Below are positions 1,985 through 48,363 of a stretch of 64,000 nt of DNA, piece by piece. Both the position numbers and the translations under genes were made by a program. Under the pieces are notes generated by a model, which saw nothing but the letters and a program-made list of their open reading frames with translations, made no database searches and was not told where the DNA came from. Source of the stretch: Eledone cirrhosa (taxonomy: Eukaryota). The DNA lies in NCBI GenBank assembly GCA_964016885.1, contig OZ024742.1, positions 84,134,001 to 84,198,000 of the forward strand, read 5' to 3'. Position 1 is the first letter of the stretch, and the number at the start of each line of letters is the position of its first letter.

Positions 1985-2772
1985 CCTTCAATATTTGCTT
2001 GTTGTAATAAGAAATTGAGTGTGGCATATCAGGGCAAAGGTGTCATGTGGTGTACGTGATGAAATCTGTAAGATTGGTGGAGACAGTGAGTTAAGAAGAA
2101 GATAAACATAAACACAACAAGAAAAACAAAAAATTGAAGATGATTTTGTGAGGAACTTTACCAAGGAAATTGAATTAATAGATATAAATTATATGTAGAT
2201 ATACAGACAAGGACATAAGTATTTCAATATATATATAAATGTAAGCATGTATACGTACATACATATATGTATACAGACGTACAGTAGTATGTATATATTT
2301 ACATACATGCACACATATATATATGTATGTATGGGTTTACCGAACATTTATTATAATGTTCGGTTTCTTTGTAAACAAACAGCCCGAATTAAGCCGTACA
2401 GTGTTCGGCAACCATCGTCGCCTTTTTGTTCAACACTGACAACACGGGCTGTTTGTTTACAAACAAACCGAACATTATAATAAATGTTCGGTAAACCCAT
2501 ACATACATATATATATATGTGTGCAAGTATGTAAATATATACATACTACTGTACGTCTGTATACATATATATATGTACGTACACATACTTATATTTAAGT
2601 ATCAGCCGTACTAAGAGTGAGAAATGAAATTTCATTTCATTCTTTTCCATTAATCGTTTTCGGTACGCCCGGCCGACTAACTCACTCGATATGCAAATTA
2701 GGCTGCTCAGCCGTTAATATGCATAAGGAAAGTATACACTTTCAAACGTTCAATCATCTGACAGGAAGGTAT

Positions 2773-2815
2773 ACGATGCTGACGATAGCTAATAAGCTTG
2801 AAACTAGTTCATGGT
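2773..2815 (+). ncRNA. Minimal type I hammerhead ribozyme (family A, copy 1)
   Basis: acgATG-CTGACGA-tAGCT-aata-AGCTt-GAAA-CTAG-TT-CATggt; palindromic ACTAGT stem III. Confidence 0.7.
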
Positions 2816-3203
2816 TCCTTTGTCAGTGTTGAACAAAAGGGCGACGATGGTTGCCGAACACTGTACGGCTTAATTTGGGCTGTTTGTTTACAAACAAACC
2901 TAACATTATAATAAATGTTCGGTACACCCATACATACATATATATATATGTGTGCAAGTATGTAAATATATACATACTACTGTACGTCTGTATACATATA
3001 TATATGTACGTACACATACTTACATTTAAGTATCAGCCGTACTAAGAGTGAGAAATGAAATTTCATTTCATTCTTTTCCATTAATCGTTTTCGGTACGCT
3101 CGGCCGACTAACTCACTCGATATGCAAATTAGGCTGCTCAGCCGTTAAAATGTATAAGGAAAGTATACACTTTCAAACGGTCAATCATCTGACAGGAAGG
3201 TAT

Positions 3204-3246
3204 ACGATGCTGACGATAGCTAATAAGCTTGAAACTAGTTCATGGT
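3204..3246 (+). ncRNA. Minimal type I hammerhead ribozyme (family A, copy 2)
   Basis: identical to 2773-2815. Confidence 0.7.
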
Positions 3247-3864
3247 TCCTTTGTCAGTGTTGAACAAAAGGGCGACGCTGGTTGCCGAACACTGTACGGC
3301 TTAATTCGGGCTGTTTGTTTACAAACAAACTTAACATTATAATAAATGTTCGGTAAACCCATACATATTTATATATATGTGTGCATGTATGTAAATATAT
3401 ACATACTACTGTACGTCTGTATACATATATGTATGTACGTATACATACTTACATTTAAGTATCAGCCGTACTAAGGGTGAGAAATGAAATTCCATTTCAT
3501 TCTTTTCCTATATATATATATATATATATATATATATATATATATATATATATATATATATATATATATATATATATACATACTCATATATATATATATA
3601 TATATATATATACATACATGTGTGTGTGTATATATATATATATACATGTTGTGTATATATATATATTTGATGAACGTCCCGTGACCCACTCTTTCTTTGT
3701 CGATATAGCTGCATTCACAAACACGCAGTACACATTTATGTTTGACATTGTGTACTACAATATCTTGTTAGCACTGGTGTTCTAGTATGGTTATATCTAT
3801 ATACAAATATACATACCTATTATTTATATTCATACACAGAACAAGGAAGCGCTACATATATGTA

Positions 3865-5026
3865 CAGGGTGCGGACGGTATTTGAGGACACATGTATTTT
3901 TAGTCATTATTTTATTTAACTAATTTTTATTGAACTTCTATTTCAGAAAATAACAATGAAAATAACGATGCTTACTAATGAAACGAAAATGTATGTTGTG
4001 ATTGTGGCTTTGAAGGCTTAGCATGGTGATTTAGAAATTTCTTTTTTTCTGTAAGTTGCAAGATCTTTTGTCCACAAGGTTCGGTGTGAATTAGAGAAAG
4101 AAGATGGAAGCGTATTACCTTTATCAAAACGTAAAAAAAACATTCCAAATGCCCTGATTCTATCAGGGCACCTGAATTTATTCAGGAAGTTAAGCAAAAC
4201 ATTGATGACAATCCAGGAAAATCAATGAGGTCAGAAAAAACAATCAGAAATGTTGTGCATGAAGACATCTTACGTGGTGAGGAGAGGTCAATTCATGTGA
4301 GAAAAACAAAAGAAATCCTTTTAATCAGGTTCAAAAGACTTTTGAAAAAACTTAAAAATCCATCAGAAGATGATGTGATTTGGTTTTTCTCAGATGAAAA
4401 AAACTTTGACCAGGACCACAAAACTAACAGAAGAAATGACAGGTGGCTAAATGCAGTCCCTTCTGAGGTTCCAAGAGTAATGCACTCAAAATTTCCTGCA
4501 AGTGTCATGGTTTTGGGTGTTGTTACCATTGAAGAACATGCGCCACAAGGCCTTAGGGTGAATGCTGCTGCGTATATTGAGGTTATGGATAAAGTTGTTA
4601 AGCTTGGGAACAACAGTGTATGCAATTGAAGGCCTTATGTTTTTCAACAAGATTATGCACCATCACACAAGGCTCAAATGACACAAGAACAGATGGGTGA
4701 CAATTTGCATGATCACATCACCCCCAACGAGCATCGTTGAGAAAAATGTCACTGAACACCCCCTAGCACAAACGATTCTTTGAAAGCTGCAATAGATTGA
4801 GTCTGTCCGATATGAACAAGGACCACTTAATCCGAGCTTGTAAACGATTTCAACCACACATAAAGGTTATTGATGTTAATGGTGGTTTTATTGAATGAAA
4901 TTATTAAATTGATAATTTACCTTAATGTTTAAGTTATTTTTTATAAGAATATAGTTTTTTTCTGTTATCATATAAGCGTTTTTAAAACCCCCCACAAATC
5001 TGTCTTTAAATACCGTCCGCATCCTT
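3865..5026 (+). mobile_element. Tc1/mariner (maT/DD37D-like) DNA transposon, decayed
   Basis: TIRs cagggtgcggacggtattt / aaataccgtccgcatcctt flanked by TA; transposase WFFSDEKNF..NRRNDRW..VMVLGVV..YVFQQDYAPSH with stops and frameshifts. Confidence 0.9.
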
Positions 5027-5180
5027 TATATATATATGTATGCATAGATGTATGTGAATCCCCGGCTTTCTTGGTGATTTCATTGTGATTTCATTGTCAG
5101 TTCTTGTTCTGTAGAAACCATTTCCATATTAAACTTTATATATATATATATATATATATATATATATATATATATATATA

Positions 5181-46221: not shown

Positions 46222-46432
46222 TAACGAAGGAAATGTGGTAAGGAACCAGATAGACCATAACGCACCAAAGTACTCAATACTTAGAGTAGTAGAGTGGGTA
46301 ATAGGAACGATAGGTCCCCGACGGCTGAGCTCAAGCCGTTTCGACGGCTAATTCTGGACTAAAATCCGTTCAGTCCAGAATTAGCCGTCGAAACGGCTTG
46401 AGCTCAGCCGTCGGGATCCTACTCGTTCCTAT
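46222..46432. mobile_element. Family B element with long hairpin
   Basis: homologous to 11199-11400 with an 11-nt loop aaaatccgttc. Confidence 0.85.
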
Positions 46433-46970
46433 ATATATATATATATATATATATATATATATATATATATATATATATATATATATATATAAATATATAT
46501 ATATAAATATATATATATAAATATATATATATATATATATATATATAAATATATATATATATATATATATATAAATATATATATATATATATATATATAT
46601 ATATATATATATATATATATATATATATATACATATATATATATATGTATAATTTATATTTGTTCATACACGGAACAAAGAGCTAACCAAGGTTTCAAAG
46701 CCCAATTTTGACCATACCTGCCTGCAGAAAACAAGAGGCATCAAAATAGTTACCTTTCTTCAGGCGTCAATGCTCGTCTCATTGTTCCGTGTATGAGCAT
46801 AAATAAATAATATATTTCTGCTCTCTTCCAAATTGAACACTGGTTTCCTTTTTCCTTTTCACATTTACGGATATTGCTATATACCTCTCTCTCTCTCTCT
46901 CTCTCTCTCTCTCTCTCTCTCTCTCTCTCTCTCTCTCTCTATATATATATATATATATATATATATATAT

Positions 46971-47329
46971 ACAATGATATTAAATAAATGAAAATAATAT
47001 TTATAAATCCATATTTATTCTATTATATATATTTCAAGGGTACCAAAATGTTGGTACGCTATCATCAGATAAAATACAAAATGTTTGATAAATATTTGAC
47101 ATAACCAAGAATAATATAGCTTAACCGTTCAGGTTATCCCTGGAAAAGAAAGACTTTCCAGGGATAACTTCAACCGTTAAGGTATACTATCAAATATTTA
47201 TAAAACATTTTGTATTTTATCTGATGATAGCGTACCAAAATTTTGGTACCCTTGATATATATATATATATATATATAATAGAATAAATATGGTTTTATAA
47301 ATATTGTTTCCATTTATTTACTATCATTG
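46971..47329. mobile_element. ~360-bp foldback of family F pLTR with two HHRs (47016-47076 minus, 47213-47286 plus)
   Basis: near-palindrome centred ~47150; arms match 23300-23428 and 31441-31572. Confidence 0.85.
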
Positions 47330-47443
47330 AATAATTACTCCAGAAATCTGTCGAGTGCCCTGAATCAGATATAAACATTTATATTTGTTGTATTTCCAAC
47401 AAATTAAATATCCCTTCTACTTATATATATAGGAAAATGTTCA

Positions 47444-47564
47444 AGACCCCGACGGCAGAGCTCAAGCCGTTTCGATGGCTATTTCTACCCACTCTACTAC
47501 TCTAAGTATTGAGGACTCTGGTGCGTTATGGTCCACCCGGTTCCTTACCACACTTCCTTCGTTA
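47444..47564 (-). mobile_element. Family B copy lacking one arm
   Basis: like 21600-21725. Confidence 0.8.
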
Positions 47565-47595
47565 TATATATATATATATATATAAATATATATAT

Positions 47596-48363
47596 AAAAA
47601 CAAATAACGAAACGAAATTTAATTTCGTTTCGTTTGTAACTCACTTTTGTATGACTAACGCTTAAACAATTAAGTCAAAAATGTACATCCACATATGTAT
47701 ACTGAAATACTAGTATGCATATGAATACACACACGTATACATATGTAGATGTACCGAGTTTTTCACTGGTCACTTTACTGTGAGTGTCCAGCTATTCTGT
47801 ATGTAAACACACAGACAAACCGGTTTTTAGAGTCATACTGGTTTTTGAGGAAACACCTTTCCTCTATTCTCCAGAAAGCCAGACAAGGAATATTGAACTA
47901 GTTTCGTTGTTGTTACAACTCATCAGCAATATTTACCTATCTTCCGGCCCCTCTAGAGAATCGTAAAAGCACATATCGTTATATGCTTTTTCTATGAAAA
48001 TTAGTAGTGGGCAGACTAATTTGCATAGAGCGTGAGTACGTACCGGTTCAACGGAGACGATAAAAACAAATAACGAAACGAAATTAAATTTCGTTTCGTT
48101 TGTAACTCACTTTTGTATGACTGACGCTTAAACAATTAAGTCAAAAATGTACATCCACATATGTATACTGAAATACTAGTATGCATATGAATACACACAC
48201 GTATACATATGTAGATGTACCGAGTTTTTCACTGGTCACTTTACTGTGAGTGTCCAGCTATTCTGTATGTAAACACACAGACAAACCGGTTTTTAGAGTC
48301 ATACTGGTTTTTGAGGAAACACCTTTCCTCTTGTCTGTGTGTTTACATACAGAATAGCTGGAC
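47596..48363 (-). mobile_element. Family C retrozyme-like element, second locus (1.6 units plus short inverted tip)
   Basis: close match to 27463-28062; period ~466. Confidence 0.85.
47889..47933 (-). ncRNA. Minimal type I hammerhead ribozyme (family C variant)
   Basis: AATATTG-CTGATGA-GTTGT-aaca-ACAAC-GAAA-CTAG-TT-CAATATT. Confidence 0.9.

Follow-up and report, generated by a model that had tools for sequence, protein, structure and literature searches.

Among described systems, the closest to the repeats reported here are the non-long terminal repeat (non-LTR) retrozymes of animals, known with their circular RNAs from coral, mussel and axolotl (Cervera and de la Pena 2020, PMC7229834) and tied in vertebrates to the pseudo-LTRs (pLTRs) of Penelope-like elements (PLEs) by a 2026 preprint (Li, Clavereau and Pollet, bioRxiv 10.64898/2026.07.22.740005). 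In the parts of these two accounts that were compared, such retrozymes are non-coding tandem units of 150-450 bp with a GC content below 50%, a type I hammerhead ribozyme (HHR) with a weak palindromic helix III, thousands of copies and co-occurrence with PLEs. The prior link between PLEs and retrozymes rests on co-occurrence and phylogeny; a 2020 review, in its section on the subject, assumes passive read-through of retrozymes (PMC7761336); and both the transcription of animal retrozymes and the enzyme that copies them are open questions. Here, we studied three families of HHR repeats, A, C and D, in a stretch of 64,000 nucleotides (the window) from Eledone cirrhosa (NCBI GenBank assembly GCA_964016885.1, contig OZ024742.1, positions 84,134,001 to 84,198,000 of the forward strand), a genome that bears on both questions.

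The promoter of newt satellite 2 is reportedly laid out as an octamer plus a proximal sequence element (PSE), and the internal promoter of the schistosome Sm-alpha repeats is said to be tRNA-like. Newt satellite 2 resembles the present units in being a ~330-bp HHR repeat with an internal small nuclear RNA (snRNA)-type promoter and a dimer-type ribozyme; as related in citing papers, that promoter is of the RNA polymerase II (Pol II) snRNA type (Coats, Zhang and Epstein 1994), whereas here the box is proximal, is shared with U6 and U6atac genes only, precedes a TATA, recurs in at least six families and is accompanied by PLE insertion marks. The schistosome repeats, in the portions of the papers compared, likewise place a promoter ahead of the HHR and need the tandem to regenerate it, with RNA polymerase III (Pol III) reported, but that promoter is internal, in contrast to the upstream snRNA-type box here (PMC6765202, PMC2220036). 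A promoter has also been reported for the LTR of a plant retrozyme. Endonuclease-bearing PLEs (Neptune/Nematis, Poseidon) and their pLTRs share with the units, in the passages compared, partial tandems, an inverted 5'-truncated arm, an optional tail on one side, a preference for targets that are AT-rich or (TA)n, and a type I HHR (PMC8557442, PMC11167929, PMC4209133); the units differ in lacking an open reading frame (ORF), in tails of ~35-70 nt and in an snRNA-type box that is absent from the PLE 3' untranslated regions (UTRs) sampled.

Relative to the published retrozymes, the units carry a conserved, apparently host-matched promoter and reach 465-510 bp, and inverted arms, two-site tails and (TA)n targeting are not described in the parts of the two accounts compared (PMC7229834, bioRxiv 10.64898/2026.07.22.740005). 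Promoter, snRNA and mollusc are words that do not occur in the main text of the preprint, and neither main text contains cephalopod or octopus terms; the supplements could list cephalopod repeats. Our literature search, with Repbase and most subscription papers outside its scope, found no cephalopod retrozyme and no HHR repeat with a U6 box, and the giant squid genome paper counts 235 Rfam hammerheads and does not analyse them. The retrozyme class and its tie to PLEs have been published before, as has the newt precedent; what is new within the literature searched is a putative host-matched U6/U1 hybrid promoter across families and the PLE two-start signature on retrozyme insertions.

We consider it probable that A, C and D are branches of a single, old superfamily of hammerhead retrozymes that are non-autonomous, with its own upstream snRNA-type promoter, and that they are copied in trans by an endonuclease-bearing PLE, most likely of the Neptune/Nematis type.

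Repeat units and loci in the window

The host genome is AT-rich and measures 3.0 Gb. The units of 431 bp (A), 465 bp (C) and 324 bp (D) have the low GC content and the short, non-coding tandem structure by which retrozymes are recognised, in arrays of up to ~30 units. No ORF of at least 120 aa was found in them except frames made of (TA)n, in agreement with the initial annotation of this DNA, which had described the three families as non-coding at these lengths. Unit positions are numbered (+n) from the A of ATGCAAAT, which precedes the CTGANGA of the ribozyme by 88 nt in A (2691 to 2779, plus strand) and by 100 nt in both C (27892 to 27792, minus strand) and D (44191 to 44291, plus strand); these coordinates and spacings, already in that annotation, proved exact on recheck. 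Three extra pairs of box and HHR lie at the same loci (3122 to 3210, 48026 to 47926 and 44057 to 43957), and 6 of the 13 octamers in the window stand 88-100 nt ahead of an HHR core, which is above chance.

Every A, C and D locus is a partial tandem plus an inverted, 5'-truncated arm, and at least two consecutive HHR units are present at the A locus of the window and in C arrays. The proposed layout of tandem, inverted arm and (TA)n holds at all loci, with the reservations that the arm at 48331-48363 is only 33 bp long and that the TA run at the D 3' end is short. The features are as follows, the promoters being assigned from their motifs.

2236..2442, minus strand: family A inverted, 5'-truncated arm, unit +129..+337, with the near 3' site at its end
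2445..3508, plus strand: family A partial tandem, 2.5 x 431 bp, with the far 3' site at its end, then (TA)n at 3509-3666
2690..2739, plus strand: putative A promoter 1, with U6-type box TATGCAAATTAG at 2690-2701, sub-box TCAGC at 2707-2711 and a TATA-like motif at 2733-2739; predicted start ~2763
2748..2836, plus strand: first type I hammerhead of A, its stem I extended, with core 2779-2803, a palindromic CUAG as loop III and the cut predicted after 2809
3121..3240, plus strand: putative A promoter 2 and hammerhead 2, with box 3121-3132, TATA at 3164, core 3210-3234 and cut after 3240
6242..6419, minus strand: family A 3' fragment without box or ribozyme
27461..28062, minus strand: family C arm 1, 1.3 x 465 bp, its far 3' end adjoining (TA)n at 26866-27463
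27762..27893, minus strand: putative C promoter and hammerhead, with box 27893-27882, sub-box 27876-27872, TATA at 27849, core 27792-27768 and a GUC cut after 27762
28060..28405, plus strand: family C inverted arm, +17..+362, with ribozyme core 28143-28167, the box lost by 5' truncation and the near 3' site before (TA)n
43767..44154, minus strand: family D arm 1, 1.2 x 324 bp, with box 44058-44047, sub-box TCACC and TATA at 44014
43957-43932 (core), minus strand: intact hammerhead of family D arm 1, cut after 43926
44155..44437, plus strand: family D inverted arm, with box 44190-44201, TATA at 44234 and core 44291-44316, stem I damaged
47594..48331, minus strand: second family C locus, 1.6 units, with box 48027-48016, TATA at 47983, core 47926-47902 and a GUU cut after 47896; its 3' end adjoins (TA)n at 47563-47596
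48331..48363, plus strand: inverted piece of 33 bp belonging to the second C locus, at its 5' end

Abundance and diversity in the genome

Exact matches to TATGCAAATKAG + N68-98 + HHR core number 26,286 in the genome, against 0 for the reversed pattern used as control, a count in which box and core are selected by the search pattern itself. The pairing of box and HHR, whose spacing the initial annotation had suggested checking across the genome, is present in six or more diverged families. At a first look, candidates numbered 3,114 for A, 1,474 for C and 2,694 for D, and an exact 27-mer of C occurs 4,827 times. Matches with off-modal spacing numbered 930 and revealed the additional families G, H, M, I (D-related), K and A2 (A-related). 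Outside the box region, BLAST aligned little between the main lineages; the alignment of H with K covers 123 nt. The longest C array holds ~31 units in one orientation plus an inverted arm (G000:C1:5738132-5752638). This is a young, very abundant and real retrozyme superfamily.

Counts of stems and TATA motifs used 28 of 34 representative rows, after removal of L232 and L236, judged to be chance matches, and of four rows without a parsable cut site. Although the search pattern did not include it, a TATA is found at +40..+46 in 22 of these 28 representatives, as opposed to 0-6 of 28 in seven other position intervals; the representatives are not independent because the families share ancestry. 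Family M (L235; also L200, minus strand, near 1007) has exact U6 spacing, with its TATA at +47, and a U6-like sub-box; it is possibly a true Pol III member or the ancestral state.

Hammerhead ribozymes

The A, C and D ribozymes are type I HHRs in which CUGANGA, stem II and GAAA are followed by a palindromic loop, by U-H and by a stem I that is long; loop III reads CUAG in A and C and UGCA in D. Cuts are predicted at +119 in A, +131 in C and +132 in D. The HHR cores first proposed for the three families are confirmed, with the correction that in the D copy named at the time, 44291, the proximal part of stem I is broken (GUCAG vs GACGG in the other arm), the intact D copy being that at 43957 on the minus strand. 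Of the three, Rfam lists only the C ribozymes, as HH9 with scores that fall short of gathering (33.7-37.7 of 52 bits). Folded in isolation, the HHR regions of C are more stable than shuffled sequences (z -5.7 and -3.8), and those of A and D show no such advantage (z -1.3, -1.3 and +0.1). Across the 28 representatives, stem I pairing is kept in 152 of 168 cells with the pair types varying, compared with a mean of 91 and a maximum of 110 for cross-family swaps. In canonical metazoan HHRs, a helix III of this kind goes with cleavage in dimeric form, according to the relevant part of PMC4209133.

The promoter-like box and host snRNA genes

The repeat box has its counterpart in host genes with type 3 promoters: a 12-bp box, TATGSWAATKAG, at -76, -77, -78 and -77 of all three intact, unrelated U6 loci and the one intact U6atac locus, each with a TATA at -30. 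Another 14 U6 rows and 7 U6atac rows have no box at that position and resemble retrocopies, and in the C19 U6 array one unit has an insertion between box and gene. The box is absent from U1 and U2 (0 of 9 distinct promoters), which carry TCAGT at -56 to -58, usually have a TATA near -30 and contain no octamer within 390 nt. Most U1, U2 and U6 genes share a different distal element, TACCTCCCTT, at about -256 to -290, which was not seen in the A, C and D units. Since the box occupies the U6-class position and is missing from U1 and U2, and since the distal element is another one, the motif is a proximal U6-class box. The initial annotation had taken it for the POU/Oct octamer of an snRNA distal element, and this identification is rejected; its wider claim, that a promoter-like motif is retained across families, is supported.

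The repeats also carry a conserved YCASY at +16..+20, 26-27 nt ahead of the TATA as the TCAGT core is in U1 and U2, where U6 has CCT. They depart from host snRNA promoters in a gap between box and TATA that is 4-5 nt shorter than in U6 (family M excepted), in having no distal TACCTCCCTT and, relative to U1 and U2, in having the box at all. Box, sub-box and TATA nevertheless hold their register between families whose sequence is otherwise mostly unalignable.

The box contains an exact octamer, and it might be a POU/Oct site that acts like an enhancer beside a separate PSE instead of being itself a PSE bound by SNAPc. Compact promoters with an octamer plus a PSE exist, such as that of human H1. 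We regard this assignment as rather unlikely: the octamer is altered in U6atac (ATGGAAAT) and in the C19 U6 array (ATGCTAAT) while the flanking KAG is kept, and in the part of the work on Schistosoma japonicum that was compared, the predicted PSE at -71 of the U6 promoter begins GTGCGAATGAG, similar to the host box (PMC5460494). A POU/Oct site alters the factor, not the mechanism.

Three side observations concern the same motifs and genes. In one family G copy (L221), the host distal motif stands ~35 nt ahead of the box. The units of the C19 U6 array each have a second U6-type box plus TATA with no U6 after it (L105:151), perhaps a relic or else the promoter of an unknown small RNA. Foreign 3' extensions are present on many retrocopies of U6 and U6atac (L116-L131, L275-L281), several of which adjoin (TA)n.

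Insertion marks and the probable link to Penelope-like elements

The 3' ends of the copies fall at two sites, +357..363 and ~+430 in C (61 of 63) and +331..342 and ~+390 in A (36 of 46), and are more diffuse in D. A TA/CA repeat adjoins 55 of the 63 C ends, and where both ends of a two-armed C insertion are in view, the two are of different kinds in 17 of 19 cases. Two fixed 3' ends beside (TA)n are the two-start 'tail' signature of PLEs, which in the portions of the literature compared have an optional tail at one end (PMC8557442); in a PLE purified and assayed in vitro, the tail corresponds to two internal start sites for the reverse transcriptase (RT), and both strands are cut and extended at AT-rich targets (PMC11167929). 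The far 3' end lies ~35-40 nt before the next box, so that one full pass yields a promoter-first unit. Target-site duplications are unreadable because the targets are (TA)n.

Candidate GIY-YIG sequences number 10,593 in the genome. Two near-intact PLE ORFs of 938 and 1096 aa comprise an RT, a C-X4-C-X2-C linker and a C-terminal nuclease (GIY-YIG profile), and the nuclease is at the C-terminus in the long PLE ORFs examined. To judge by the linker, the two appear to be of Neptune/Nematis type; an atlas search returned generic GIY-YIG/RT clusters only and no clade name. Of the earlier suggestion that a Penelope/Naiad RT copies the repeats, the first half agrees with the PLE-type insertion layout, whereas Naiad is unlikely, given that the near-intact ORFs are apparently Neptune/Nematis-type and that cephalopod Naiads are described, in the part of the source compared, as remnants without canonical HHRs (PMC8557442).

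Proposed passage of the promoter through RNA

In the model that we propose, the box shared with U6 and U6atac, together with YCASY and TATA, would start transcription ~72 nt downstream, just before the ribozyme, and the polymerase would read from one tandem unit into the next, so that the RNA would hold the next promoter. Two hammerheads, probably dimerised via palindromic loop III, would release unit-length RNA, perhaps circularised. A PLE protein would then nick (TA)n on both strands, its RT presumably starting at the two fixed internal sites shortly upstream of the promoter, and by crossing the unit junction it would give promoter-first partial tandems with inverted arms. An RT start upstream of the promoter, followed by a run across the unit junction, is what would let an external promoter survive retrotransposition.

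The copies continue past the predicted start and past the cut site, on into the promoter; their 5' ends are scattered and do not pile up at that start. Stem I reaches ~+57 in most families, which is upstream of the +72 start. A junction stem is also predicted between the end of the previous unit and the 10 nt ahead of the box, with a sequence that differs between families; it is present in A, A2, K, D, D2 and a single C array, and a whole-unit fold of C also has it. Stem I upstream of the start and the junction stem both argue that the promoter passes through RNA. Folded as circles, the units give z scores of -7.3 (A), -11.1 (C) and -3.6 (D) against 25 shuffles, values that carry no strand information because the antisense folds equally well. 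Variants private to an array, also in arrays of 19-30 units, recur in each of its units and on either arm, the pattern expected from a single template. Contigs of four sequencing runs, whose kind is unrecorded, cover the second C locus; they have no joints and no pile-ups of starts or ends, which contigs would not reveal. In one of these runs (X5), contigs span the box as well as the ribozyme, and a contig of depth 3 has clustered A>G changes, to which we give no weight.

Several observations weigh against the model, beyond the shared ancestry of the representatives and the selection of box and core noted above. The 5' ends are not piled at the cut site (C 2/70, A 0/46, D 0/47), and the junction stem is not predicted for the window C copy in a short fold, nor for G, H and I. 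A small sample of 44 PLE loci, out of the 10,593 candidates, contained no partner whose 3' end matches the units. The gap between box and TATA is 42-45 in A, C, D, G, H and I vs 46-48 in U6, with 47 in family M only, so U6 geometry is not reproduced; the scores that the repeats obtain with a U1/U2 matrix (-2.9 bits) are no higher than those of U6 genes; and runs of T5 or T6 occur in 52 of 52 C tandem units, with T8 before each box in one A2 array (three units).

These T runs would make read-through by Pol III hard and favour Pol II, and the U1/U2 (Pol II) matrix sets the start at +72/73 in 18 of 24 representatives. The assignment is less certain because that matrix does no better on the repeats than on U6, because the box is Pol III-specific in the host, and because A and D have T4 only. 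T4 is lower than A4 in C, A and H, with no difference over 31 pooled clusters (flanks included in single copies). In the published parts compared, human type 3 promoters can recruit Pol II (PMC6023835), and human Pol III terminates partially at T4 and fully at T6 or longer (PMC5725217). From these motifs, Pol II is a plausible but tentative candidate for the transcribing enzyme, Pol III is possible, and transcription by neither is unlikely.

As for the template, we lean towards a circular one. The same element and promoter could instead be copied from linear, uncleaved, multimeric read-through RNA, the ribozyme being an inherited PLE feature with some other use and the circle unneeded, which we think less likely. 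Two further points against our model speak for such a template: in the relevant part of the in vitro study, purified PLE starts internally on unprocessed, uncleaved RNA and HHR mutants insert normally (PMC11167929), and some arrays have multi-unit duplications that arose after insertion, showing that long arrays can grow later. In addition, one array (L036) has 181A>T in the last unit only of both arms, as a heterodimer template would give; with the duplications, this means that later expansion or a linear dimer also fits. Against linear copying stand the covariation of the ribozyme stems across families, the 19-30-unit arrays with array-private variants in both arms, and the accumulation of related mussel, coral and axolotl retrozymes as circles in the account compared in part (PMC7229834). 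The fullest version of the circular model, in which a captured host SNAPc-type promoter was rebuilt superfamily-wide as a U6/U1 hybrid and kept via circular RNA with a Neptune RT starting just upstream, is offered tentatively.

Unlikely alternatives: passive transcription and solo pLTRs

A further reading, in our judgement improbable, is that the box persists through a role in RNA structure or in the binding of a protein, or as the relic of a captured snRNA flank, and that the repeats are transcribed passively from host genes, in the way put forward for retrozymes at large. The box does lie within predicted hairpins in A, C and D, its spacing from the TATA differs from that of U6, and retrozymes seem to lack promoters according to the section of the 2020 review compared (PMC7761336). 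This reading sits poorly, however, with the register that box, sub-box and TATA keep between families, with HHRs that lack a box, in sampled PLE 3' UTRs as in families E and F of the window, and with an H-family core that matches a host U2 promoter at 21 of 25 nt, in one hand-picked pair.

That the units are merely solo pLTRs of autonomous PLEs, the case that the initial annotation had named as refuting it, is highly improbable: the tandem, inverted and tail layout is identical, and in Xenopus 24 of 57 retrozyme families match known transposable elements, nearly all of them PLE termini, in the part of the preprint compared (bioRxiv 10.64898/2026.07.22.740005), but PLE protein matches occur at only 4 of 91 A, C and D loci, as neighbours and none contiguous with a unit, pure unit arrays reach 20-30 copies, and the sampled PLE 3' UTRs have no box and no sequence common to the units. 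The units may descend from a pLTR of ancient date.

Other elements in the window

Two further families have a TA-associated type I HHR (GAAA UAUA UA) and no box, namely E (23268-23427, 31411-31604 and 46940-47333) and F (23708 and 26723/26767); they are probably pLTR remnants, as the F core resembles the HHR downstream of the L175 PLE ORF. Degraded Penelope-type RT/GIY-YIG fragments are recognisable by motif at 12384-15876 and 29309-30714, with no Pfam match for 29309-30316. A partial tandem with a 636-bp period (432 bp at 98%) adjoins (TA)n at 5168-6235 in a PLE-like layout; it contains CTGATGA but no matching GAAA or box. A TA-flanked element of ~280 bp with a long internal inverted repeat and no HHR core or box occurs at 11169-11479, 21564-21761, 46192-46477 and 47422-47594; it is also found in L116, L121, L122 and L276 and is very common beside U6 and U6atac retrocopies.

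Two non-LTR retrotransposons with endonuclease and RT lie head to tail at 48422-52303 and 52323-56300, 74% identical and each followed by an (ATCT)n array; we take them to be possibly microsatellite-targeting L1/Tx1-type elements, the clade being assumed and the first ORF having a Pfam match. The fragment at 4135-4629 resembles a Tc1/mariner transposase, to judge by its motif, and has no Pfam match. Rfam miRNA matches in the window are TA-repeat artefacts.

Significance for animal retrozymes

For the copying enzyme, this genome provides two mapped, presumed RT start sites per family, and for transcription a putative promoter that matches the host U6 genes and is open to mutation one base at a time, along with a route by which an upstream promoter may survive retrotransposition. 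The U6 promoter elements of this lineage, now defined, are useful for guide-RNA vectors. If the reading as a hybrid promoter maintained through circles is true, the genome would contain ~26,000 dispersed snRNA-type promoters and an abundant class of circular RNA, and the retrozymes of other animals may carry lineage-specific snRNA promoters that have been missed through fast divergence.

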